DNA from: a virus
DNA length: 64,000 bases
Direction: 5' to 3' (one strand)
IMG/VR virus record: IMGVR_UViG_3300045988_154609
Coordinates: 94,285 to 158,284 of that record
The translations under genes and the position numbers were made by a program. Shown here in pieces: positions 4,420 to 58,877 of this stretch. Position 1 is the first letter of the stretch; each line of letters starts with the position of its first letter. Below the pieces are notes generated by a model. The model was not told the origin of the DNA. It made no database searches and saw only the letters and a list, made by a program, of their open reading frames with translations.

Positions 4420-4690
4420 GAGCTTCTAATATCTCCTCTAATACTTTATAAAAATGCATACACTGACTCTCTTCCCAATTTTTACGGGAAAAATGTCTAC
4501 CTTCTTTTAATGCTTCTCTTTCTTTATATTCACTAAGTTCTTTGATAGCCATAGCATATCGAAAATATAAACTATCAAAAGCAAAATTAAGTCTTTCAAG
4601 TAAAATTTTATTTAACTGGTCTCTATTAATTACTGTTACGTCTAATTTATTTTTTAATTCTTCAGCTTCTCTTGTCATAATATATACCAT
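4385..4690 (-). CDS. hypothetical protein
   Basis: 101-aa ORF preceded by the conserved promoter box at about 4690-4740. Confidence 0.45.
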   Translation of the reverse strand: MVYIMTREAEELKNKLDVTVINRDQLNKILLERLNFAFDSLYFRYAMAIKELSEYKEREALKEGRHFSRKNWEESQCMHFYKVLEEILEAHAEDHPLRSNK

Positions 4691-4879: not shown

Positions 4880-6673
4880 TTAAAAATAATATTTAGTCTC
4901 TCCTGTAATTTCATAATCACTAACTTTAATCTGAGGAGTTATACGACCATTCCACTCATTAATTGCACAAGTTCCTATAACTGTAATATTTTTACTACCA
5001 ATAGCATTAGTAGGAAGTAATGAATCAAATTCTTCATCAGTAATTTTAAACTTAATTAAGCTTGTTCCATTAGGTAAAGTAATTTTAAATGAAGGACATC
5101 TACCACCTTTTCCCATATAAGATAAATTATCTTTGGTTACTTTGATATTTTTAATTACAATAATCGGTTCCGCGAGCTCTTGTCCCCAAATAGTATTTAA
5201 TTCAGCTAAATCAATAATATCATTTGCTTTAAAGTCATTTGCATCCCAGATAAAATCAACTTTCTGACATGGAGTAAATGAACATTCTTTTAAAGCTTCA
5301 TTTGAATACTGAATAAAATCACTGAACTTTTCTTCTGGAATGGCTGCACCAAATGCATTAGGATGACCTTCTGCGAGACTGGCATAACCGCTATCTCGAA
5401 TAAATGTTCTCAAATCATTAAAATTAGAGGTTTCATAACTTCTACCAGAACCTTCTAAGCTAATACTACCGTCTTCTTGTGGATGTTCCATAAGAATAAG
5501 AAAAGGATGATTATATTTAGCCATTAACTGGTTTGCAATGAGTCCAGTTAAATTTTTATTTATTGCTCCAGCAGCAAGCTTAACCGCAATAATTTTATTT
5601 TCTTCAAGAGATTTATCTTTTATAATTCTTTCAATCGTTTGAAGACTTGCATCAATAGCTTTAGATTGATTTCGTTTAATATTTGTGCAATTTCGGCAAG
5701 CCTGCTCTACACGAGTTTCAAACTGGCCTTTACATCCTCTTTTGGTAGAAGGAATTTGGTCATAAGCCTTAAAATCTAACATAGATTCAAAAAGCATAAG
5801 CTTCTCATTTGCAGAACCCATACGAATAGTTCCATTTATTTGCGGCGCAATATAAAAGCTAACTGCAAATGGACATAATCCTCCTGCTCTACTAATGGAA
5901 TAGTCTTGCACTTTTACCATTTCTTTAAAAAATGGGTTTTCAACAGATGCTAAACCAAGATTAATAATTTCTCTTGTTTCAAAATCTCTAATATCCATCA
6001 TATCTGCAATGATTCCAAGTGCCGCCAAATCAAGATAGTAATTTGCCCAATCTGTTCCCATGATTGAATCAAAATAAGAGCAAAATTTATAAACCATACC
6101 TACACCAGATAAAGATTTAGTTGGATAATCGCATAATTGATTATTTATTACACATGCATCCTCTGAAACTTTTTCAGCTTCATGGTGGTCAATAACCAAT
6201 ACATCAATTCCAAGCTCTTTAAGTTTTTTATGTACTTCATAATTATTACTTGATGAATCTGGTGCAATAATTAATTTATAATCTTCATTTATAAAATCTG
6301 GAATAAATTCTTCATAAAGTCCATGTTGTTTACCAGAATGTAATCCATATGAAATTTTTGTTTGAGTATATCCTGGAAATAATCGGTTTAAATAATTAAT
6401 AAGGAATGCCGCAGATGTAAAACCATCGCAGTCACTATCTACTTGAATATAAATCTTATCCTGTTGGCTAATATGTCTTGCTAACATTCTTACTCCTTCA
6501 TCTATATTCATAATTAAACCAGGGTCTAAAATATCTTCTTTAGTTGTATTAAGATAATGAGGAATATCTTTTGGATCTACTCCTCTTATTGCAAATACCC
6601 GCTCTACCACTGTATATTCATTTTTAATTGGGAGCAATGGCGTTTTAAGTTGATAATCCATATTTGATTTCAA
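4880..6673 (-). CDS. recJ: RecJ-like single-strand DNA exonuclease (DHH/DHHA1 phosphoesterase)
   Basis: DHH motifs VDSDCDG and IDHHEAE, with a DHHA1-like GSGRS region. Confidence 0.8.
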   Translation of the reverse strand: MKSNMDYQLKTPLLPIKNEYTVVERVFAIRGVDPKDIPHYLNTTKEDILDPGLIMNIDEGVRMLARHISQQDKIYIQVDSDCDGFTSAAFLINYLNRLFPGYTQTKISYGLHSGKQHGLYEEFIPDFINEDYKLIIAPDSSSNNYEVHKKLKELGIDVLVIDHHEAEKVSEDACVINNQLCDYPTKSLSGVGMVYKFCSYFDSIMGTDWANYYLDLAALGIIADMMDIRDFETREIINLGLASVENPFFKEMVKVQDYSISRAGGLCPFAVSFYIAPQINGTIRMGSANEKLMLFESMLDFKAYDQIPSTKRGCKGQFETRVEQACRNCTNIKRNQSKAIDASLQTIERIIKDKSLEENKIIAVKLAAGAINKNLTGLIANQLMAKYNHPFLILMEHPQEDGSISLEGSGRSYETSNFNDLRTFIRDSGYASLAEGHPNAFGAAIPEEKFSDFIQYSNEALKECSFTPCQKVDFIWDANDFKANDIIDLAELNTIWGQELAEPIIVIKNIKVTKDNLSYMGKGGRCPSFKITLPNGTSLIKFKITDEEFDSLLPTNAIGSKNITVIGTCAINEWNGRITPQIKVSDYEITGETKYYF

Positions 6674-47697: not shown

Positions 47698-48604
47698 TTA
47701 TTCTTCTCCTATGTAAATTAAATCATCAACATATTTGCGGTCTTCACCTTTTAAAATAGGCATATTTTTATCAATAACCCAGATAGGTCTTTCTTCAATA
47801 ATTGTAGTTGTAACTTTATCTTCTCCAAAAGGTTGTGGTTCTCTTTTTATATTTTCAGTTACTTTTGTTGCGACTTTAATACATGCGGTACCTCGTTTAC
47901 ATGGTATTGTAAAATCATTCCAATTAATACCATATTTAGTCATTAACATATCTTGAATCATATTACAAGTTTTATCTTGAAGTTCATCATGTGAAAAATG
48001 AGCTTGTCCGACCATTTGAATACTATTTCTTGTTGCATCAAGTTGCCGCCAATAGATTAGGTTAGTTACCTCTTCTTTTGGAATGTTAAAACATCTGGCA
48101 TCAAACAATGCTCCTTTCTTAATTGCTTTAGAATAAATTTCAGACAATTTCCACTCTGGTGAATTTGTTACTTCTGGATCATTAGTACCACCTTCATACC
48201 ATTCATATCCAAAAGTTTCAACGCCCCATTTATCCACTTCTTGAGCGAAGAATCTGTTAAAAGCCATAGTTGCCATTGAAGCAGAAATACTACATATTTT
48301 CTGAACTTCATAATCGAACCATGCAGAAGAAGTGAATTTCTGATAATCCACTAAAATCAGAGTAATTTCATCTGATTGTGTATATCCAAAAACGCAACCT
48401 TGAATATTTTCACATAAATATTTCATTGTTTGTTGCATTGTATCCATTAGCACAAAATCAAAGGGTTTTTGAAAACTTCTTGTAAAAGTATGAAACGCCT
48501 TACCGTCAAAGACGTATCGCTACTGGTGTTCTTCTCATAAGAACAGTTTTACTAACTTTTTCATAATTTTTCATTCTGTTAGCTAAATCACTTCTATTCA
48601 TAAC
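47698..48604 (-). CDS. Thg1-like protein (tRNA-His guanylyltransferase-like 3'-5' polymerase), interrupted by a +1 frameshift near 48510
   Basis: The N-terminal 31 codons (MNRSDLANRMKNYEKVSKTVLMRRTPVAIRL*) end at a TGA. The next frame continues FDGKAFHTFTR...YTQSDEITLIL... (Thg1 RMK.YE, P..IRLDG.aF and SDE motifs). One extra T sits in the CTTTGACGG run. Confidence 0.6.
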
Positions 48605-48620
48605 GATGTATAACTCCTTT

Positions 48621-49646
48621 CTATTTAAAATATTCTTGAAATTTTTCTTTTATCTTTTCTTGTTCTTCTTTATTAAAGTCTTTATAATACCTAAAATAAG
48701 AATTATCTCGCATCTTTCTTCTCCCTGATTTTACACTTGAAATCATTGAAGAAGATAAATTTAATTTTTTAGCTGCATCTGCCCCAGATTCATATATGTT
48801 AATATAATTACCATCCTCAGATAAATGAATAATAACATTTTGCAATTTTTTATTTGGGGATTTATATAAATTATTTTTAATTAAATAATGTTTTACTATA
48901 TTTGGTTCAATGCCATATTCTTTAGCAATAGCATAATATGTCATACCTTTTTTATATTTTTCACAAAAATCCTTTTCTTTATCAGTATGACTTTGTGGTA
49001 TAGCATTAATATATTCTGCAATCTCCCATTTATATTTATAATCTTCAAAAGGACATTCTCCAATATAGTCTAAGAAAGCTTTTTCTTTTCTATGAGGAAT
49101 ATATATATAATATTGCTGTTCACCATTACTTCCTAAATCAGCTTTCATAAGAGTAGCTTCAAAATCACTTAATTGAGGAATTAAAATTTTTTCTTGCTCC
49201 TCTTTTAAAAAACATTGAGTTGATAATTTAATATTCTCACTTCGTTTATTATGACAAATTCCGCCATCTCCTATATACCATATTAAGCAAGTTAAAGGTG
49301 TTAATGTTAAATCTTCAGGCAAATGTTTTTTACCATCAATATACCAATGATAATATTCTTTAGTAAAACTAGAATTTGTATAAGTCTTTACTTGAGAATG
49401 AAAATATTCTTTATTGGTACGTTTATCTATATAGCTGGTATCTTTAATTCCTTCTCCAGACCAATACTCTTTAAAATATTCGGCTACAAAACTTACATGC
49501 TGTTTTGATTTAGACAAATATGTAAATTGAGCGTTTATACCATTTTTATGTTTAATTAAACTTCCATCTCCCAATAAAGCACCATATAATACTTCTTTTT
49601 GAGTTTTAGTAAAAATAATTTCTTCTGTTAGCTGTGCTTGTGCCAT
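48621..49646 (-). CDS. LAGLIDADG-family homing endonuclease (two motifs) with C-terminal HTH-like tail
   Basis: LYGALLGDGSL and WYIGDGGI, the two LAGLIDADG motifs. Confidence 0.6.
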   Translation of the reverse strand: MAQAQLTEEIIFTKTQKEVLYGALLGDGSLIKHKNGINAQFTYLSKSKQHVSFVAEYFKEYWSGEGIKDTSYIDKRTNKEYFHSQVKTYTNSSFTKEYYHWYIDGKKHLPEDLTLTPLTCLIWYIGDGGICHNKRSENIKLSTQCFLKEEQEKILIPQLSDFEATLMKADLGSNGEQQYYIYIPHRKEKAFLDYIGECPFEDYKYKWEIAEYINAIPQSHTDKEKDFCEKYKKGMTYYAIAKEYGIEPNIVKHYLIKNNLYKSPNKKLQNVIIHLSEDGNYINIYESGADAAKKLNLSSSMISSVKSGRRKMRDNSYFRYYKDFNKEEQEKIKEKFQEYFK

Positions 49647-50265: not shown

Positions 50266-51075
50266 TTAATTCTCCTCTAACAGCTCATCAAACATATTTT
50301 GAAATTTACTATAATTGACAGAATCATCGTTAATGATAGGAATTGCGAAAATTACTTTCTTAAATTCAGTTGCATAATCTGTAACTAACAGATTGATAAA
50401 AATTTCTGCAACATCATCTGCATCCTGTCCAAATACTCCGCATCCAAAAGCCCCTAAAATAAGAGTATCAACTTGATTCTGCTTTGCTACTTCAAAAATA
50501 AATCGAATTCTTGATTCAAGAACTTTTTTATTTTCTTCTCTATCTACGTTGCAATACTTTGCAGCGGCAGTAAAATTAGGTGCGGCGCAAGTAATTACAT
50601 CGCAGTATTTTTCAATGCCAGAATGCTCAAATCTGATATTTGGAGAATAAATTGCTCTATTCTCATACAAAGCACGATTCTTGTGTTTTTCATTCCAATC
50701 ATAATAATTTGGAATTTGGCTTAATACGTTGTAAAGAAAAGATTCATGGCACAGACACTCTTCCTGAGCACGTGAACCTCTAATAAACATTCCGCCAGGA
50801 TTCTTATATGAAGCAAAATTAAGAACTGCAACTTTTCCATCTGTAGAATCGCAAGCTACAATAGCTTCAACGCTTCCAACAGCATCAAGAGCAATATCTG
50901 CTTCTTTTAATTTTCTTGCGGGCGTTGTTGCTTTAAAATCTTTGCTATAAATTTTACTATTCATTACGCTTTCCGCAATCTTACTTGCAAATTGCTCATT
51001 CATTTGCTTAGTATGCTCTTGTGCAATAACTGCTCTTTGAGCTTTATCTGCCCAATAATAACTAATATCTTTCAT
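50266..51075 (-). CDS. macrodomain protein of the bacterial-type PARG / DUF2263 (TIGR02452) family
   Basis: VLNFASYKNPGGMFIRGSRAQEECLCHESFLY matches the family signature (vLNFAs..pGGG...GA.AQEE.LC..S.LY). Confidence 0.6.
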   Translation of the reverse strand: MKDISYYWADKAQRAVIAQEHTKQMNEQFASKIAESVMNSKIYSKDFKATTPARKLKEADIALDAVGSVEAIVACDSTDGKVAVLNFASYKNPGGMFIRGSRAQEECLCHESFLYNVLSQIPNYYDWNEKHKNRALYENRAIYSPNIRFEHSGIEKYCDVITCAAPNFTAAAKYCNVDREENKKVLESRIRFIFEVAKQNQVDTLILGAFGCGVFGQDADDVAEIFINLLVTDYATEFKKVIFAIPIINDDSVNYSKFQNMFDELLEEN

Positions 51076-51243: not shown

Positions 51244-51280
51244 ACAAAAAAATGGGAAGGTTATATATAATAACCTTCCC
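51244..51280 (-). terminator. rho-independent terminator
   Basis: Hairpin GGGAAGGTTAT-ATATAA-TAACCTTCCC followed on the minus strand by TTTTTTT. Confidence 0.65.
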
Positions 51281-51404
51281 ATAAAATTATAATAAAGATA
51301 AAACTACTTCTCGTAAATTACTAATGTTTGGAACATCTTTTGGAGTATATCTACTATTTTCTTGAGATAATAGTCTTACCCAAATTCTTACTAAGCCACT
51401 ATTT

Positions 51405-51704
51405 TCATTGAACATCTTTCGTCCCCTCCCCCATTGCGATTGTTAATTCCGCAATAGCAGAATCAATTTGATTTTGATACTCAGCAAATAGAGTTGTTAA
51501 TTCTCCTATTGCTTGTTCTTGCTCTGGTATGATTTGTTTAAAATATTCTTCAAAAGTTAATTGGATTTCATCATATTCCCAATATGGATTATTATCTTCA
51601 TCTGTCTTTTGAATAATATTTTTTCTTATATATACTGTATCTATATTTAACTCAAGAGGTAAAACTTTTTCCTGAGTTCCTCGAACTTTTTCATACTGAA
51701 CCAT
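51405..51704 (-). CDS. hypothetical acidic protein downstream of the DGR reverse transcriptase
   Basis: 99-aa ORF, immediately 3' of the RT gene. Confidence 0.4.
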   Translation of the reverse strand: MVQYEKVRGTQEKVLPLELNIDTVYIRKNIIQKTDEDNNPYWEYDEIQLTFEEYFKQIIPEQEQAIGELTTLFAEYQNQIDSAIAELTIAMGEGTKDVQ

Positions 51705-51706
51705 AT

Positions 51707-52924
51707 TTACCCTCCTTTTTTATGAATTATATTATGCCAATTCTTATTATAATATTTTTTATTATTTATCTTTTTTCGATTTGGCGTTATGAATTGATAA
51801 GACGCTTTTTTATATTTACTCTTTTTATATAAAGAATAATAAGTATTAATAATAGGAATACTATCTTCATAATACTTTTTATAAAAATGTTTTGAATCAC
51901 ACCATTGAATCCATCCTAAAGAAGAAACCCAAGCACACCATTCTTTATCTGTTGGAAGTTTATATTCTTTGCTATATTTTTGCATTTTTATAGCAGTTTG
52001 TTTAAAAGTTTTTAAAGTAGTTTTTCTTAATAATTTATATCCTCTAAAATGTCTATATCCAACAAAATCTACTCCTCTTGCATCAACGGGGAAAATTTGA
52101 TAATTAGATTTTATTTCTAAATCTAATTCTGATAATAAATATTCTCTTATTAAAAATAACCACTCTTGTAACTGCTCTTTTGTTTCTCCAAAAATAACAA
52201 TATCATCCATGTATCTTACAACATAATGACAATGTAAAACTTCTTTTAACCAATGATCAAAAAATGTTAAATAATAATTTGCTAAATATTGAGATAAATA
52301 AGACCCAACTGGAATTCCCTTTCCAGGTCTTAAATATAATTCTTTTTCTTCTTGTGGTAAATCAATTTTAGAAATATCACAATTGTCCATACTATCAATT
52401 ATTTTATCTAATTCAATTAATAGATCTTTATCTTTAAATTTTCTTCTTAATAATTTTTTTAAAATTTTTCTATTAATACTGGGATAAAATTTTTTAATAT
52501 CTAATTTTAAACAATATTTAGTTCTCTTAGGATCTGAATTTATCCATTTATCAACTAATTCACTAGCTTGGTGAATACCTCTTCCAGGTATAGATGCACA
52601 AGTGAAATCTGTCATAGTTTTTCTAAATATTGGTTCTATTTGTAGCATAATTGCCCATTGAATAATTCGATCTGGATAGTAAGGAAGTTTAAATAAAATT
52701 CTTTTTTTATTTTTGTCTTGAATAAGACTTGTTTTATAAGGACTTACTTGGTATGTATGATTCTTTAACATTTTTTGTATTTTTTGAGATCGCTCATCTA
52801 AATTATTTGAAGTTTTTACTACAGCTGAATAAAAACTTTTATCTTTCTTTGCATTTAGATGAGCTCTTTTTATATTATCTATGTCAATAATATCAGAATA
52901 TATGTTTCCTGACCTTTTTGGCAT
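51707..52924 (-). CDS. diversity-generating retroelement reverse transcriptase
   Basis: RT motifs LDIKKFYPSI and YVVRYMDDIVIFG (YxDD). IPVGSYLSQ fits the DGR-type (I/L)GxxxSQ signature. Adjacent to the TR/VR pair. Confidence 0.8.
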   Translation of the reverse strand: MPKRSGNIYSDIIDIDNIKRAHLNAKKDKSFYSAVVKTSNNLDERSQKIQKMLKNHTYQVSPYKTSLIQDKNKKRILFKLPYYPDRIIQWAIMLQIEPIFRKTMTDFTCASIPGRGIHQASELVDKWINSDPKRTKYCLKLDIKKFYPSINRKILKKLLRRKFKDKDLLIELDKIIDSMDNCDISKIDLPQEEKELYLRPGKGIPVGSYLSQYLANYYLTFFDHWLKEVLHCHYVVRYMDDIVIFGETKEQLQEWLFLIREYLLSELDLEIKSNYQIFPVDARGVDFVGYRHFRGYKLLRKTTLKTFKQTAIKMQKYSKEYKLPTDKEWCAWVSSLGWIQWCDSKHFYKKYYEDSIPIINTYYSLYKKSKYKKASYQFITPNRKKINNKKYYNKNWHNIIHKKGG

Positions 52925-53130
52925 AGAGGAACCTTCTTTCTATCTATTTTTTTTATTATTTTATACTTTTTTCTTTTATTTTTTTATTGTAAAAAAGAAA
53001 ACTTTTTAGAGCAAACGTTCAAAATATTTTTACTAGTACACTCCTCAAAAATTTGCTAATGTTTTGCCAAGAGGCATGGTAAAAATTTTGGTTGGATTTA
53101 AAAAATCAAAAACTAAAAATAGATAAAAAC

Positions 53131-53258
53131 GCGTGTGCCAATATTCACATTCGTATTAGAGGCTGTATTATTCGCATTCAAATAGAAAGGACTGGTATTC
53201 GATCTATTAGTCCAATGACTACTGAATTTCAAAACGTGATCTGAATACAGATAACTGT
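53131..53258 (-). repeat. DGR template repeat (TR)
   Basis: 128 bp, about 73% identical to 53342-53469. Every one of about 35 mismatches falls at a T on the plus strand of this copy, which is an A on the minus/coding strand. Confidence 0.85.
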
Positions 53259-53326
53259 TAAATAAATATTTTTTAATCATTTTATAGCCTTAATAATGAC
53301 ACAAAAATTTTTACCAAAATATATTT

Positions 53327-54934
53327 TTATAGGTACATAAGGCGCGCGCCAACAGACACAATCGCAGCAGAGGCCGTACCAGCCGCACGCAAATAGAAAG
53401 GACCGGCACTCGATCCATCAGCCCAACGACCACCGAATAGCAAAACGCGATCCGAATACAGATAACCGTAATCACAGAAAAATGTAGTACCACTACCTTT
53501 GTATTCTACATTCATAAAACCGGTTTCTGTAGTTCCTGACACGTTAGAAACATAACCACTGGAATTTGATGTTAATCCAGATGAAAAAGTAAAATTCTCT
53601 TGATCATTTTCTTTATTATAATCCCAATTAGTAATTATATTCCAATTACTATCTATAATAAGGCCATCAATCCATTCCCATATATTTCCCCAGAAATCTT
53701 CTATTCCGGCAAATTTAACATGACCAAGTTTAGCAGTTTCATATTCTGCACTTGATCCAGAATTTGAAGTATTTCCATAATACATTTTTTTACCAGCATC
53801 AAAAGTTAAAGTTCCTCCGGTTACCAAAGGACCATAATTTGATTCTTCACGTTTATCACTTCTACCACAAATTCCTTGACCTAAAGCGGCTTGACCATTT
53901 AAATTCCCATATTTAATTAAATATAAACATTGAATTGCAATTAATTGGAAATAAGAAGTAATAGTATATCCATTTCCATTATTTTGGGCACAAGTCTTAA
54001 AGGCGCCAATTGTTTTAGAGTTAGCGGATTGTTTATTTGGAATTGAACGTAATTTTCCTTCTGCGTCCAATGATCCTTTAAAAGCTCCCCAATAAAAATA
54101 ATCTTTATCTCCTTCTTTACTTTTACTAAAAGCATAATATTTATAATTATTTTGTTCTGCATAATCATTATTATTAGTAATTGATACTCGAAGAATTTTA
54201 TTGTCTTGTGGGTCTTTCCAAATTTTATAAGCAAATTTTGGAAATTCTATCATAACGTCTCCATCAGTGCCATCTAAAACTGCATTTTCTCCAGAAGCTT
54301 TCTTAGTAAAATCATTTTTATTAAGATAATAATTGACTATACCATTTTTAAAAACACAAGGCTTTATATCTCTAAAAATAAATTCATTATCCCAATCATC
54401 TGATCCTTTTTTCATATTTTCAGCATCATCTTCATATGTTATACAAGTTAATGGATTTGAATTGTTTAAATCAATCTTAACAGTATAAACTTTTGAAGTG
54501 GTGTAAGTAGCAGAAATTTGATATATTTTTCCTGGAGTAGTAATTTCAACTGTTCTAATTGAAGAAATTGCTCCCGCAGATTGATATGCAATTTTAAAAA
54601 TTCCATAAGAAGTTACATTTAAAATTGCAATTCCAGCACTATCTGTAGTTGCTGTATAGACATCATGAGAACTGCTATTTGTTAAAGTTACAGTCGCTTC
54701 TGTTGCAGGAGTAATTGTTACAATTACTTGAGCCGCATTATTTGAATCTAATAATAATTTAGAAGCAACCTTTTGAACATATCCAGTAGTCGCAATTTGA
54801 TTAGAATTATTAGTAGTTTCTGCGGTTGGAGCAGTTGGAACACCAGAAAAAGAAGGGCTTTCTAAGTTAGCTTTTTTTAAATCAATTTTATTTATTATTC
54901 TTTTAAGCCCATTTTCATTTAAAAATTTATCCAT
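53327..54934 (-). CDS. DGR target protein: tail-fibre-like receptor-binding protein with C-terminal FGE/C-type-lectin-fold variable domain
   Basis: C-terminal ...EDFWGNIWEWIDG... (FGE-sulfatase-like GN.WEW motif). The VR lies in the last 48 codons. The N-terminus is fibre-like and Thr/Ser-rich. Confidence 0.8.
   Translation of the reverse strand: MDKFLNENGLKRIINKIDLKKANLESPSFSGVPTAPTAETTNNSNQIATTGYVQKVASKLLLDSNNAAQVIVTITPATEATVTLTNSSSHDVYTATTDSAGIAILNVTSYGIFKIAYQSAGAISSIRTVEITTPGKIYQISATYTTSKVYTVKIDLNNSNPLTCITYEDDAENMKKGSDDWDNEFIFRDIKPCVFKNGIVNYYLNKNDFTKKASGENAVLDGTDGDVMIEFPKFAYKIWKDPQDNKILRVSITNNNDYAEQNNYKYYAFSKSKEGDKDYFYWGAFKGSLDAEGKLRSIPNKQSANSKTIGAFKTCAQNNGNGYTITSYFQLIAIQCLYLIKYGNLNGQAALGQGICGRSDKREESNYGPLVTGGTLTFDAGKKMYYGNTSNSGSSAEYETAKLGHVKFAGIEDFWGNIWEWIDGLIIDSNWNIITNWDYNKENDQENFTFSSGLTSNSSGYVSNVSGTTETGFMNVEYKGSGTTFFCDYGYLYSDRVLLFGGRWADGSSAGPFYLRAAGTASAAIVSVGARLMYL
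53342..53469 (-). repeat. DGR variable repeat (VR) within the 3' end of the target gene
   Basis: Partner of the TR. The GC-rich end GGCGCGCGCC (candidate IMH) differs from ACGCGTGTGCC in the TR. Confidence 0.85.
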
Positions 54935-55284
54935 TTTAGTAGTTTTTACTCCTTTCTTTTTAAATATCTTTCTCTAATATTATAAAGGATTAAAAATATA
55001 TTCTTTTTATTTTTGTCCAAAATAAAAAAGGAGTAAGAATAAATCTTACTCCTTAAATCTATTGTTATTATTTGATATAAGCATAACGCTCAGTATCAAG
55101 TTTCTCCATCATCAGGTCATATCCGTCTTTACCAGAAAGAATTGTTTCTATCATATTCAATAATCTTCATCATCAAGAGCTGCGATTGCCATTTCTAACG
55201 CTTCTTTAATTTTTTCTCTTTTATCTATATCTTCAAATGAAATATGAAGATTTTTTAACACCTCAATAGCTTCTTTAATTGTCA

Positions 55285-55485
55285 TTATTTTACCTCATAT
55301 TTAGAATCCATTAGCATTTCTAAAGTAATATTTTCTTTTTCCCAATATGGGATTCTAACTAATGGAATATTATTTGCGGCCGCCCAATCATTTTTCTTTT
55401 TGTCTCTTTCTTGTCTATCTTGTTCAAACGAAACGGACTGGAAGAAAATTTCCAGTCCGCATATTAATTTTCTTACTGGATACAA
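55285..55485 (-). CDS. hypothetical protein
   Basis: 66-aa ORF. Confidence 0.3.
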   Translation of the reverse strand: MYPVRKLICGLEIFFQSVSFEQDRQERDKKKNDWAAANNIPLVRIPYWEKENITLEMLMDSKYEVK

Positions 55486-56996
55486 GAGTATCTTTCAGAA
55501 TCGAGCTTCTTCATCATGAGAGAGTAGCCATCTTCTCCAGAGAGAATTTCTTCTACCATCGTCATTGAGAATCCAGATACATAGGAGAATCTTCCGCCAA
55601 GGGCTGGAATGTTATTCTGTCTTGCATCAAGATTCCAGAAGATTACTTTTGGTAATTCATAGCCATAAGCCATCCACTTCTGAGCAATGTTCTCAAGCAG
55701 AGTATTGATTTCACCAATACCACCGGTAATACGGTTTCCATAGCTCCAACGCTCTCTGGAAGGACGTCCAAAGGACATACAACCATTAAACTCCATATCA
55801 GAGAAGATATAAAGAGTTTTTGGCATCTCAGAAGCAGGAACTTTATTTTTAAGAGCGACGTTTAACATAAGGTCAAAAGTTGCCTCAATGTTTGTGCTTC
55901 CACCCCAGTCGGCAGAACGTGCTCTCTGGAATTTATCATAAATATCTACTCCATCGAATCTAACAAACTGAGGATTGCTGGAGAATGTGATGAAATGGTT
56001 CTGGAAAGGACCTTTACCACGCTCTGCGATATAAGCACCCATAGATACTGCTGCATTCATTGGAGTACCACTCATAGAGCCAGATACATCGACGATTGCA
56101 ATTCCGTTCTCCTCACGACCATTGTAGTAGTCTTTAAGGTTTGCCCAATATTTATCCCACATCAAACGCTCAGTCTGAGTTGGAGTACCGTAGTATCCAC
56201 CATAACCAAAAATCTGACTTGCGATATCTACTGGATTCAGGACTGCCGCATTAACAGTCTTAGTTTCATCCTTAGCAAAGTCCGCATAAGTCTGTGCTCC
56301 AGCCTTTGCACGCTCAATGTCGTGTCTTGCGAAAGCGTTCTTATACTTCATACCTGCTTTAGATGGAATCTTATCGAACTCAATTTCATCCCAACGATTC
56401 TCAGACATTAAACGCTCAAGAACGTTAATACGAGCACGAAGGATAGAAAGAGTCTTACGATACTGCTTTGCAGTCATTCCAAAATATTTACGAGTTACTT
56501 TTCCAAGTCTGCGAGACTCATGAGAAGAAGTATTCTCAGATTTCAGCCATTTTGCAAGCAGAGATGGAGTTTTGCACTGAACATCAAGTGCAAGCTGGTC
56601 TTTCATAATCTTCAGAGCATCTCCCTCAAGAGCTGTTCCTACGAATACATACAAGTCATCCCAACGACCAAACTCTGGTACATGAATCAAGTTTCTACGT
56701 ACCGCTTCTTTATCGACAGCAACCAGATCTTTGATTGCTACACGGAAAAATCTACGCTCACCCTGTCCACCACGCACGTCACGCAGATAGAACAAACATT
56801 TCAGAGCGTAAACAGGATTCTCTCTGAAAGCATTTCTTACAAGTGTTTTTACATCATCATCGCTTCTGTTACGATATGCTCCACCAAGTGCGAACATATC
56901 CAACAAATCTGACTTAGTTGTCTTATGTGTAATAGCACCATTTTCAGTTGTTGTGAAGTTTGTAGCTGCTTTCATTCCATTCATAAAACTATTCAT
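55473..56996 (-). CDS. TROVE/Ro60-like protein with C-terminal vWA domain
   Basis: N-terminal helical domain (...YALKCLFYLRDVRGGQGERRFFR...), then a vWA MIDAS motif IVDVSGSMSG in the C-terminal half. Domain order matches Ro60/Rsr. Confidence 0.55.
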   Translation of the reverse strand: MNSFMNGMKAATNFTTTENGAITHKTTKSDLLDMFALGGAYRNRSDDDVKTLVRNAFRENPVYALKCLFYLRDVRGGQGERRFFRVAIKDLVAVDKEAVRRNLIHVPEFGRWDDLYVFVGTALEGDALKIMKDQLALDVQCKTPSLLAKWLKSENTSSHESRRLGKVTRKYFGMTAKQYRKTLSILRARINVLERLMSENRWDEIEFDKIPSKAGMKYKNAFARHDIERAKAGAQTYADFAKDETKTVNAAVLNPVDIASQIFGYGGYYGTPTQTERLMWDKYWANLKDYYNGREENGIAIVDVSGSMSGTPMNAAVSMGAYIAERGKGPFQNHFITFSSNPQFVRFDGVDIYDKFQRARSADWGGSTNIEATFDLMLNVALKNKVPASEMPKTLYIFSDMEFNGCMSFGRPSRERWSYGNRITGGIGEINTLLENIAQKWMAYGYELPKVIFWNLDARQNNIPALGGRFSYVSGFSMTMVEEILSGEDGYSLMMKKLDSERYSCIQ

Positions 56997-57256
56997 AGAT
57001 AAAATCTCCTTTTTCTCTTAACCTTGTTACAAGGTCGTAATTGATTTTTAACAAGATCCTTTTTGGTTAGAGCGTTTTAATTTTTCCCACTTAAACTACA
57101 GAATTACTTCTGACTGGATATGGACCAGCATTCCCTTTACTTTCGTTTATACCTACCACAGTATAAAAATATTTTTTTTTAGCTGTAAGAACCTTTCTTT
57201 ATCTTACATATATATTATATTATATTTTTATTTAAAAATCAATTAAGATTTTTAAG

Positions 57257-57330
57257 AGGCGGGAAGGGGATTCGAACCCCTGAATAGCGGTTTTGCAGAC
57301 CGCCGCCTTAACCAACTTGGCTACCCCGCC
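57257..57330 (-). tRNA. tRNA-Cys (GCA)
   Basis: Hand-folded cloverleaf: acceptor GGCGGGG/TCCCGCC, anticodon stem GCGGT/ACCGC with loop CTGCAAA, T-arm AGGGG-TTCGAAT-CCCCT. Confidence 0.85.
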
Positions 57331-57794
57331 TGAAACTCTTCTATCGGATACCCATTCTCCGCAAACCACTCTTGAATTGGTTCACGTTCTGAACAATGAT
57401 TTCCAAAAGCCTCATGCACAATTAAAATTACAACTGGCTCCTCTTGGAATTTTTCTCGTTCTTTAACAGCATATCCAATAGACTCAATTCTTGAAAGAAT
57501 ATTTTGAAAATCTAAATGCTCTAATTGCATTTTGTATGTTTTTAAAAACATACAATCATTTGCGGTGCTTGCACATCCTTTTGGACCAGAACATAATCCT
57601 TCACATAAAGGACCTGGCGCAAATGGTTCTGCTCTTAAACCATTCCATACTCCATTTTTATCTTTAAATTGATAATCTTGACCTTGGTTTCTATGAAACC
57701 ATTTAGGATCCCATTTAGCTGTACTAAGAGGAATCATATAAGGTTTAAAAAATCTAATTTGATAAAAATAAGATGTCATAATTTTCATATTCAT
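57321..57794 (-). CDS. hypothetical protein between tRNA genes (weak DUF488-like C-terminus)
   Basis: 157-aa ORF whose 3' end overlaps tRNA-Cys by about 10 nt. Confidence 0.4.
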   Translation of the reverse strand: MNMKIMTSYFYQIRFFKPYMIPLSTAKWDPKWFHRNQGQDYQFKDKNGVWNGLRAEPFAPGPLCEGLCSGPKGCASTANDCMFLKTYKMQLEHLDFQNILSRIESIGYAVKEREKFQEEPVVILIVHEAFGNHCSEREPIQEWFAENGYPIEEFQAG

Positions 57795-57806
57795 TCTCCT
57801 TTAAAA

Positions 57807-57881
57807 AGTGTGCCAGGCGGGACTTGAACCCGCGACTCTCAAATTAAAAGTTTGATACTCTACCAACTGAGTTACTGGCAC
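57807..57881 (-). tRNA. tRNA-Lys (TTT)
   Basis: Acceptor GTGCCAG/CTGGCAC, anticodon stem TCAAA/TTTGA with loop CTTTTAA, T-arm GCGGG-TTCAAGT-CCCGC. Confidence 0.85.
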
Positions 57882-57883
57882 AA

Positions 57884-57910
57884 AAAAGGGGCAAAATGCC
57901 CCTTTTTTCA
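57884..57910. terminator. bidirectional-looking hairpin with flanking A/T runs next to tRNA-Lys
   Basis: AAAAAGGGGCAAAATGCCCCTTTTTT. Confidence 0.5.
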
Positions 57911-58191
57911 AGGCATAATAATCATCCTTTTTCAAAAATATGTTTTATTCTCATATAATAAAATATTTGCTTGAATTTAATCAACGATTGCTGTTTATGC
58001 CTTAATGTAAATTATAAAACCATTAAAAATTAAATAGATGCTTCTTTTTACTAATACTGCTTTATATATCAAGAGCCCAGCCTATTTAGTCTACTGAGAA
58101 GCATTGCATCATCATATTTTAATATGTATGTAATTTTATTAATAATATCCATTTAAAGATATAAATTATTTTGCAGTTTACGGCTCTTTAG

Positions 58192-58263
58192 AGCGGATAA
58201 CGGGATTTGAACCCGTGACACATGCTTGGAAGGCACGTATGTTGCCAACTACACCACACCCGC
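58192..58263 (-). tRNA. tRNA-Gly (TCC)
   Basis: Acceptor GCGGGTG/TATCCGC (two GU pairs), anticodon stem CGTGC/GCATG with loop CTTCCAA, T-arm ACGGG-TTCAAAT-CCCGT. Confidence 0.75.
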
Positions 58264-58373
58264 ATATTTAGCAAATGTTTAAAACATTTGCTATTTTTAA
58301 GAGGAAATTTAAAAAGAGGAAAGTTCTTTAACTTTCTATATTTATTATATCAAAAAATTTTATAAAAATCAAA

Positions 58374-58700
58374 TCATTTCATTTTATACCATTTGTACCA
58401 CTGTCTATAAGTTTCTTTTTTGTCTGGATATTTACAATACTTAGATTTCTTTGCTTCAGGAAAATTCATTTTAAACCAATAATAATGTCTAATTTCACTT
58501 TCCCAATATTCTTCCCAAGTCATTTTATATCCATAATCACAAATATCCCAAGTTTCATAAATTTTTTTAAAATCACTTTTTGAAAGTTTTACATCTGGAT
58601 GCTGTTTCAGCCAAGAACGAACTGTCTGATTTGCAATCCGTTTTTTTATTTTGCCTTTTTTGTCTCCAGCCCAAGGCGTTTTTTTATAACTTCTACTCAT
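58374..58700 (-). CDS. hypothetical basic Trp/Tyr-rich protein
   Basis: 108-aa ORF. Confidence 0.4.
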   Translation of the reverse strand: MSRSYKKTPWAGDKKGKIKKRIANQTVRSWLKQHPDVKLSKSDFKKIYETWDICDYGYKMTWEEYWESEIRHYYWFKMNFPEAKKSKYCKYPDKKETYRQWYKWYKMK

Positions 58701-58794
58701 TATCTAAATCCTCCTTTCCAAGGACTTAGAAGACTGTACCAATATGATAGAACATATATTATCCCTCCTATTGATTTTTTAGTGAATAGTTAAA

Positions 58795-58877
58795 TAGCTC
58801 CTATGGGACTCGAACCCATAAGTCTCGAAGACGTGCGATCTTAAGTCGCATGCGTTTACCAGTTTCGCCAAGGAGCC
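58795..58877 (-). tRNA. tRNA-Leu (TAA)
   Basis: Acceptor GGCTCCT..AGGAGC, anticodon stem TGCGA/TCGCA with loop CTTAAGA, long variable arm, T-arm ATGGG-TTCGAGT-CCCAT. Confidence 0.8.

Follow-up and report, generated by a model that had tools for sequence, protein, structure and literature searches.

Gut phages are rich in diversity-generating retroelements (DGRs), and a DGR that diversifies a tail fibre is the textbook case. In the prototype, the DGR of Bordetella phage BPP-1 (gene order mtd-avd-TR-brt), information passes from a template repeat (TR) to a variable repeat (VR) with changes specific to adenines, and the VR is found at the C-terminal end of a protein with a C-type-lectin fold, in BPP-1 the receptor-binding protein of the tail fibre. 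Here, we describe a locus with these same features in a 64,000-nucleotide stretch (the window) of the IMG/VR virus record IMGVR_UViG_3300045988_154609, positions 94,285 to 158,284. It is very probably a functional DGR without accessory proteins, made up of a target gene with its VR, a TR, a spacer RNA and a reverse transcriptase (RT), within a terminator-bounded operon on the minus strand (55054-51252). The RT of BPP-1 (bRT) is its closest relative of solved structure, and in both systems the 3' end of the VR is G/C-rich, unlike the TR. It departs from the BPP-1 type (Architecture B) in having neither Avd, there a basic four-helix bundle encoded next to the TR, nor a stable hairpin after the VR, in diversifying AAT instead of AAC codons, in a spacer motif of another Rfam family (RT-17 type), in an RT that is 77 aa longer than the 328-aa bRT, and in a target for which Mtd is a weak fold match.

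By gene content, the locus resembles Architecture A1 and the avd-less Lineage 3 (PMC5758913), with a core of target, TR and RT and no avd, HRDC, MSL or CH1 family detected. The accessory-less Architecture A accounts for 29% of 372 catalogued DGRs (Wu et al. 2018, PMC5758913), so the absence of Avd is not unusual, and the existence of an avd-less lineage implies Avd-independent homing, by a mechanism that is still unexplained (PMC5758913). The same catalogue describes neither spacer RNA nor fibre-companion genes. Concerning the spacer, the RT-10 motif was found in the equivalent position of BPP-1, while other RT motifs were only speculated to serve DGRs (Weinberg et al. 2017, PMC5737381); in BPP-1, the RT is wrapped by this spacer, which also provides the nucleotide for priming (bioRxiv 10.1101/2023.10.23.563531). 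Other gut-phage DGRs (crAss-like phages, e.g., LMMB, and Bacteroides and Faecalibacterium phages) share the setting and the tail-fibre target, with RTs 36 to 40% identical to ours, but they reside in a different phage backbone; the present one is about 196 kb and has no nucleotide similarity to INPHARED records. The element belongs to the already described Avd-less type of DGR, and it is the host phage that is new. Its value is that of a well-documented natural example of the accessory-less class, now tied to a conserved spacer RNA of the RT-17/RT-18 type, for which a DGR role had only been speculated before. In addition, the same cassette is available from dozens of human-gut assemblies with differing VRs on a (near-)identical protein, that is, as a record of the outcomes of diversification. 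The link to the spacer RNA and a regularity in the context of the template adenines seem to us the parts most worth following up.

Repeats, reverse transcriptase and target protein

The two 128-bp repeats are located, on the minus strand, where the original prediction had placed them (Table 1). Their ungapped alignment has 98 of 128 identical positions (76.6%, slightly above the ca. 73% first given). When substitutions were tabulated by TR base, every mismatch fell on a TR adenine, as had been claimed, although there were 30 of them and not about 35: 22 A>G, 5 A>C and 3 A>T, with 11 of the 41 TR adenines unchanged. The probability that all 30 would land on the 41 adenines is 2e-20 (hypergeometric). 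Mismatches affect mostly first (17) and second (10) codon positions, with only three at third positions. A separate repeat search recovered the same pair (131 nt at 76%). Read in the frame of the VR, the TR is NSYLYSDHVLKFSSHWTNRSNTSPFYLNANNTASNTNVNIGTR, with eight AAT codons. GC content is 0.57 in the VR, 0.30 in the rest of the target gene and 0.36 in the TR. No second VR was found in the 64 kb, scanned on both strands with the TR adenines wild-carded.

Table 1. Features of the DGR cassette and adjacent genes (positions within the window)
Feature	Position	Strand	Description
Upstream intrinsic terminator	55028-55054	-	11-pair stem and T-run; 5' edge of the cassette transcription unit
Target gene, 535-aa tail-fibre-like variable protein	53327-54934	-	Fibre-type N-terminus, beta-rich middle, C-type-lectin-fold C-terminus
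Variable repeat (VR)	53342-53469	-	Last 43-48 codons of the target
Candidate IMH, GGCGCGCGCC	53341-53350	-	Perfect 10-bp G/C palindrome at the VR 3' end
Template repeat (TR)	53131-53258	-	Non-coding
Spacer RNA motif, divergent Rfam RT-17 type	53003-53086	-	Between TR and RT
DGR reverse transcriptase, 405 aa	51707-52924	-	VGSYLSQ and YMDD motifs
99-aa acidic protein	51405-51704	-	Starts 2 nt past the RT stop codon
42-aa open reading frame	51287-51415	-	Overlaps the end of the 99-aa frame; phrog_5056, E 3e-11
Closing intrinsic terminator	51252-51282	-	13-pair stem and T-run, 5 nt past the 42-aa frame
PARG/LAGLIDADG neighbour region	50266-51075, 48621-49646, 47698-48453	- (all)	

The RT is full length and keeps every motif expected from the original prediction of a DGR-type enzyme (LKLDIKKFYPSI, GIPVGSYLSQ and RYMDDIV). 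It matches Pfam RVT_1 (E 1.4e-20) and the phage RT family phrog_1423 (E 9e-114). A sequence search of the PDB gave as the best solved structure 8ub7_A (E 6.6e-32), which we checked to be 100% identical to the brt product of BPP-1; the alignment preserves GIP(I/V)GS..SQ..AN.Y and RYMDDIV. Group II intron and retron RTs reached about 1e-11 at best (2e-11 for a group II intron), and matches to group II, retron and Drt RTs in NCBIfam were below threshold. A retron, group II intron or defence RT was ruled out by the far better match to bRT. Among isolated phages (INPHARED), the closest RT is that of Psychrobacillus phage Perkons, at 47%.

The target protein matches phrog_5302, annotated as "tail protein," over nearly its whole length (residues 43-534, E 1.8e-69). 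Several tail-fibre PHROGs match residues ~19-65, and the segment SPxFxGxPTAPTA...QIATTxxV found there is common to many of them, bearing out the fibre-like N-terminus that had been proposed. An AlphaFold2 model built on 83 homologues had a mean predicted local distance difference test score (pLDDT) of 90.8. Its best Foldseek match was TaqVP of Thermus aquaticus (PDB 5vf4), itself a DGR variable protein with its variable residues in a C-terminal C-type-lectin fold (E 6e-11, probability 1.00, ~400 aligned columns); BPP-1 Mtd variants appeared lower in the list and were weak (E 0.011). Sequence identity to TaqVP is only 18%, and TaqVP is encoded on a bacterial chromosome and has no phage-fibre N-terminus; the TM-scores are modest (0.35-0.49) because our target has extra N-terminal domains. 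In the model, the VR lies within the ligand-binding scaffold of the C-type-lectin fold. The C-type-lectin assignment made from the sequence is thus upheld by the TaqVP match, while the accompanying label of formylglycine-generating enzyme (FGE) is not, as no Pfam family matches the target.

Homology to the PHROGs and synteny in smaller relatives suggest that the target is a receptor-binding protein of the tail fibre. It might instead be a diversified binder that is not part of the virion and acts, for example, inside or on the host cell. This would fit the location of the cassette, which is flanked by terminators in the manner of an inserted island and has genes for replication, tRNAs, Ro/TROVE-like and PARG proteins around it, and the lack of any matching Pfam family. 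We consider it rather unlikely given the full-length match to a tail protein, the N-terminal segment shared with so many tail fibres and the fact that, in smaller relatives, the homologous gene is found directly upstream of holin and lysin, which is the classical position of a fibre gene.

Natural variation and probable activity of the element

Nucleotide searches of INPHARED, IMG/VR, JGI metagenome contigs and GTDB genomes provided no matches to close relatives, and a search of those collections for the pattern of the candidate site of initiation of mutagenic homing (IMH) gave chance matches or none. The relatives of the target were recovered via a protein database instead (~5.8 billion proteins), in which two clusters at 90% identity surround it, with 30 and 20 members. 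We compared 28 full-length natural relatives. In residues 491-528, up to 11 different amino acids occur per column, and the hypervariable columns are those where the TR codon holds an adenine; the remainder of the protein shows ordinary, sparse polymorphism. Per-site divergence over all pairs was 0.28 in the last 48 residues versus 0.05 elsewhere, and not one pair among the 28 had identical VRs. Four pairs are identical over residues 1-487 and differ at 6 to 13 VR residues. In one pair (P0122 and P0131), identity extends through residues 1-487 and the first 26 residues of the VR, so that all six differences are in its 3' half. This is the pattern expected if integration of the complementary DNA (cDNA) starts at the 3' end and stops at a variable point, and it looks like a partial replacement of the VR anchored at that end.

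At the DNA level, the comparison covered eight independent loci, in each of which both repeats were present. The TRs are nearly invariant, with only a handful of positions differing among loci. Each locus has 19 to 32 mismatches at adenines and 0 to 3 non-adenine differences, within the range catalogued for DGRs. The hypervariability that had been anticipated for the VR is therefore present among natural relatives, with the rest of the protein and the TR conserved. Polymorphisms of the TR that do not involve adenines recur in the corresponding VR: GATCG>GATTG and ACC>GTC in two of them (L022 and L025) and GCC>GCT in a third (L030), recognizable as the strings GATTG, AATGTC and GCTTCT. These mirrored changes are direct evidence of information flow from TR to VR.

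The same data bear on a reading without any retroelement, in which the TR would be a decaying duplicate of the 3' end of the gene, drifting toward A/T, next to an unrelated RT. The genome is AT-rich indeed (0.28-0.33 GC), the TR has a lower GC content than the VR, and the RT has those sub-threshold NCBIfam matches to group II, retron and Drt enzymes. However, under such drift C>T and G>A should be equally frequent and changes should affect both strands, while here the TR base is always A and there is no TR T opposite a VR C. Moreover, conservation is seen in the TR and variability in the coding VR, and the RT is far closer to bRT than to any other solved RT. We give this reading practically no credence; the adenine-only mismatches, the conservation of the TR and the restriction of variation to the VR in relatives rule it out.

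Relatives of the target and of the small open reading frame (ORF) yielded at least 25 additional, more distant TR/VR pairs whose mismatches are adenine-specific. In every one, the VR is C-terminal and a TR follows 180 to 340 nt downstream. One of them belongs to an isolated 137-kb phage, Perkons (MT325768.1), where the VR is at the end of ORF176, a "hypothetical protein" (locus 4462-4613), and the TR is located 222 nt downstream, upstream of the RT; of its 42 mismatches, 81% are at adenines with the repeat ends loosely trimmed. The record annotates only a "reverse transcriptase" and no DGR.

Two side observations come from these collections. Four loci (L075, L078, L087 and L104) have adenine-specific TR/VR pairs and the fibre-companion ORF and no RT within the fetched stretch; the RT was either lost, leaving an orphan TR, or is encoded elsewhere. 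Also, several assemblies stop at the VR/TR repeat or shortly beyond it (L021, whose contig ends 250 nt past the target, L034 and L035), as might be seen if heterogeneous VRs, or simply the presence of a repeat, had tangled the assembly graph.

With this background, the way the element would work can be outlined. The operon transcript would supply the TR together with the structured RT-17-type spacer downstream. The RT would copy the TR into cDNA, misincorporating opposite adenines, and the cDNA would replace the VR from its G/C-rich 3' end (GGCGCGCGCC) toward the 5' end, at times only in part. This would randomise, on the ligand-binding face of the C-type-lectin-fold domain, eight AAT codons as well as a few others containing adenine, and the phage population would carry many receptor-binding variants. 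The two small ORFs downstream would belong to the fibre module.

Several observations weigh against a functional DGR of this kind. The exact target of the window is unchanged on seven contigs, although these are possibly re-assemblies of the same sample. The cassette is surrounded by replication and nucleotide-metabolism genes with no tail module visible there, so that incorporation of the target into the virion is presumptive. In the spacer, the match to RT-17 (RF03020, 53002-53081) scores 31.1 bits, under the gathering score of 40.4. There is no stable hairpin or cruciform 3' of the VR (DNA fold of 53270-53352: -6 kcal/mol, z-score -0.01 versus shuffles). Finally, bRT is inactive without Avd (bioRxiv 10.1101/2023.10.23.563531).

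The first of these points could mean that the element, a real DGR by descent, has become a frozen relic in this genome and has ceased to diversify. Decay does occur among relatives. L029 has a nonsense change (TTA>TAA) at codon 123 of the RT (L029 4386-5603), and four independent assemblies (L030 to L033) have an additional A in the A-run right after RT codon 2 (ATGCCAAAAAAAG; L030 ~6015-6035). The target of this frameshifted lineage (P0136) is, like that of the window, identical on seven contigs. These lesions indicate that the element is sometimes lost, or possibly switched off, and the A-run could be a slippage-prone on/off switch. In the window, however, the RT is complete and the TR, spacer motif and IMH-like end are intact; close relatives with intact RTs differ solely in the VR on otherwise identical proteins, and the identical contigs may be one sample assembled repeatedly. 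A frozen relic is accordingly very improbable, and the comparison with relatives suggests that the DGR is still active in this particular genome.

Cassette layout, spacer RNA and companion genes

On the minus strand, the order is target, a 68-nt spacer, TR, a 206-nt spacer, RT, the 99-aa ORF and the overlapping 42-aa ORF. The target, RT and 99-aa ORFs and the order (target, TR, RT, small acidic ORF) agree with the original prediction, except that the unit extends past both ends of the interval then delimited, from 51252 to 55054, as marked by the two intrinsic terminators. Four terminator-like sites were found versus 1.2 expected from shuffles.

The original prediction had named the spacer between TR and RT as a place to look for structured-RNA elements or Avd, and an RT-17-type motif was found there. 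Like RT-17 (RF03020) and RT-18 (RF03021), it sits between TR and RT and comprises a GCC-loop-GGC hairpin (here UGCC-UCUU-GGCA, 53065-53076), followed by AAAC and a UAGUA...GAA stem. Besides its score below the gathering threshold (E 5.7e-4 in a local search of 651 nt), it differs from RT-17 in that an A/U-rich stretch replaces the inner stem. Homology is nevertheless supported by the position, by relatives above threshold and by a family-specific model. At the same position, distant relatives have RT-17 (seven loci) or RT-18 (two loci) above the gathering score, and a covariance model built from 18 distant relatives had one significant match in the window, precisely here (39.5 bits, E 1.6e-6; the next-best match had an E of 0.1). 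Compensatory changes are present at three of the four pairs of the first hairpin, the one structure that RNAalifold retrieved from a MAFFT alignment, as the inner stem is variable in length. Folding of the whole spacer gave no signal over shuffles (z-score -0.65), and pairings between the TR 3' end and the spacer predicted with RNAduplex, as an analogue of the template:primer duplex of BPP-1, were long and inconsistent, with no common register. By analogy with BPP-1, the motif is probably the element that binds the RT and primes synthesis.

At the 3' end of the VR, the palindrome GGCGCGCGCC corresponds to GGCACACGCG in the TR (53130-53139). Both had been quoted in the original prediction and are indeed present, the TR version having been given on the opposite strand. 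They are invariant, GGCGCGCGCC in 8/8 VRs and GGCACACGCG in 8/8 TRs. Note that the differences between them fall at TR adenines and are indistinguishable from mutagenesis followed by selection. By analogy, an IMH/IMH* pair is plausible. Inverted repeats 3' of the VR do occur in several distant relatives.

The lack of Avd noted from the sequence held up. There is no ORF between target and TR, neighbouring ORFs had no Pfam match to Avd at E up to 10, and Avd (PF05635) was not among the best 25 of the 34 Pfam families matched by the 60 small ORFs of the window. Avd-independent catalysis by the RT of the window thus appears likely from the gene content. As a separate observation, the C-terminus of this RT (residues ~352-405; 51707-51870, minus strand) is a basic tail rich in Lys, Asn and Tyr (YKKSKYKKASYQFITPNRKKINNKKYYNKNWHNIIHKKGG), absent from bRT and from distant relatives (RTs of 345 to 376 aa, whose alignments end at 351-361). 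This tail might be a nucleic-acid binder in place of Avd, or mere low complexity in an AT-rich genome.

The small ORF that follows the RT is acidic, as predicted (pI 4.17), and could be thought of as a new accessory factor replacing Avd. It starts immediately after the RT, in a lineage without Avd when bRT requires one, and recognizable homologues follow the RT in every relative, among them all close ones. Among 47 more distant IMG/VR loci that encode a homologue, 34 have it after the RT. However, in at least eight it comes directly after the fibre gene without any RT, and in one of these (L080) only 18 nt separate the two genes, which leaves no room for a TR. In small phages, the homologue is followed by a CD1375-like/XkdX-like gene, holin and lysin, a position typical of the fibre module. 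The pI is far from the mean of 9.5 for Avd proteins (PMC5758913), and the model has a beta head and one long helix in place of the four-helix bundle, with no fold match. Nor were there matches in Pfam, NCBIfam, PDB sequences or named PHROGs; the identification as XkdW-like was a guess that could not be confirmed. An accessory role is unlikely, and we conclude that the ORF, counted as part of the retroelement in the original prediction, belongs to the fibre module and is not Avd, the TR-RT segment having been inserted between the fibre gene and its companions. The 42-aa ORF is conserved in all close relatives and sits where smaller relatives carry CD1375-like/XkdX-like small genes. The counterpart in relatives matches PF23792/PF09693, but that of the window does not, so its likeness to these genes is only positional.

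Adenine context and genomic surroundings

The fate of the TR adenines seems to depend on their neighbours. In the eight close loci, all seven adenines that precede a G became G (55 of 56 VR cells), those in the GAT context were retained in 16 of 16, and those of the AAT codons took all four bases. Likewise, in 25 distant pairs, the adenines of CAC, CAG, TAC and TAG became G in 85 to 93% of cases and C or T in at most 2%, while those of AAT, TAA and GAA spread over all bases. Overall, TR adenines in the context pyrimidine-A-(C/G) are G in 85 to 100% of VRs. Many of the always-G sites are scaffold residues, e.g., TR AGT AGT versus VR GGT GGT (the GG of FGGRW), and selection on the protein would explain those. 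At four-fold-degenerate third positions, however, the same context also gave G, in 15 of 16 cases in the close set (TCA|G, ACA|G) and in 20 of 21 in the distant set with the repeat ends excluded, while other contexts gave 5 A, 7 G and 1 T. At the third position of AGA>GGA, A was found in 8/8, though any base there encodes Gly. Protein selection alone is therefore an insufficient explanation, with the caveat that a small number of homologous sites account for most synonymous cases, so that independent contexts are few.

We tentatively propose, as a possibility that may well not hold, that this Avd-less lineage has two kinds of template adenines, those of AAT/AAA being randomised and those of pyrimidine-A-(C/G) converted almost deterministically to G. 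There could be a programmed layer of A-to-G recoding on top of random mutagenesis, through a context bias of the RT, which could consist in re-use of the preceding template base, or through A-to-I modification of the TR RNA. Alternatively, the G bias may come from selection on the VR at the nucleic acid level or from the repair of G:T heteroduplexes. For bRT, misincorporation depends on context and most often involves C in vivo, and re-use of the template base that comes before has been put forward (PMC12875486); there the NAC context favours insertion of G, i.e., A>C, and the pattern of the family described here is different. If the proposal is true, the TR of an AT-rich phage could spell essential Gly, Arg and Ala codons with A and still deliver G, as in AGT AGT for the GG of FGGRW, CAC for Arg and ACG for Ala. 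A rule intrinsic to the RT would matter for the design of DGR templates and for engineering mutagenesis based on DGRs.

As to the phage, it is a previously undescribed large gut phage of ~196 kb with 32% GC. The exact 535-aa target protein was also found on a human-gut metagenome contig of 195,681 bp (run ERR209456), and close relatives sit on contigs of 193 to 201 kb. The GC content along the window is 28 to 38%, and coding is almost wholly on the minus strand. It encodes type II topoisomerase subunits, an NAD-dependent ligase, a RecJ-like nuclease and a DnaB-like helicase, as well as four tRNAs (Cys, Lys, Gly and Leu). Next to these tRNA genes and directly upstream of the cassette (55473-56996 and 57256-58877, minus strand), there is a 507-aa protein with matches to DUF2828 (TROVE/Ro-like), DUF7788, a weak vWA and phrog_850 ("RNA-binding protein"). 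The arrangement is reminiscent of Ro60/Y-RNA-type modules; a scan with Rfam gave no Y RNA and only weak sRNA-like matches, at 57876-57975. An RNase H (Pfam PF00075, E 4e-29) is encoded by one of the 60 small minus-strand ORFs of the window and could strip the template RNA after reverse transcription, although a replication enzyme is likelier. The genes directly downstream of the cassette encode a PARG/macro-domain protein of the microbial type and a LAGLIDADG homing endonuclease that is free-standing and carries NUMOD-like DNA-binding motifs; in relatives, the next gene downstream matches Thg1 (PF04446).

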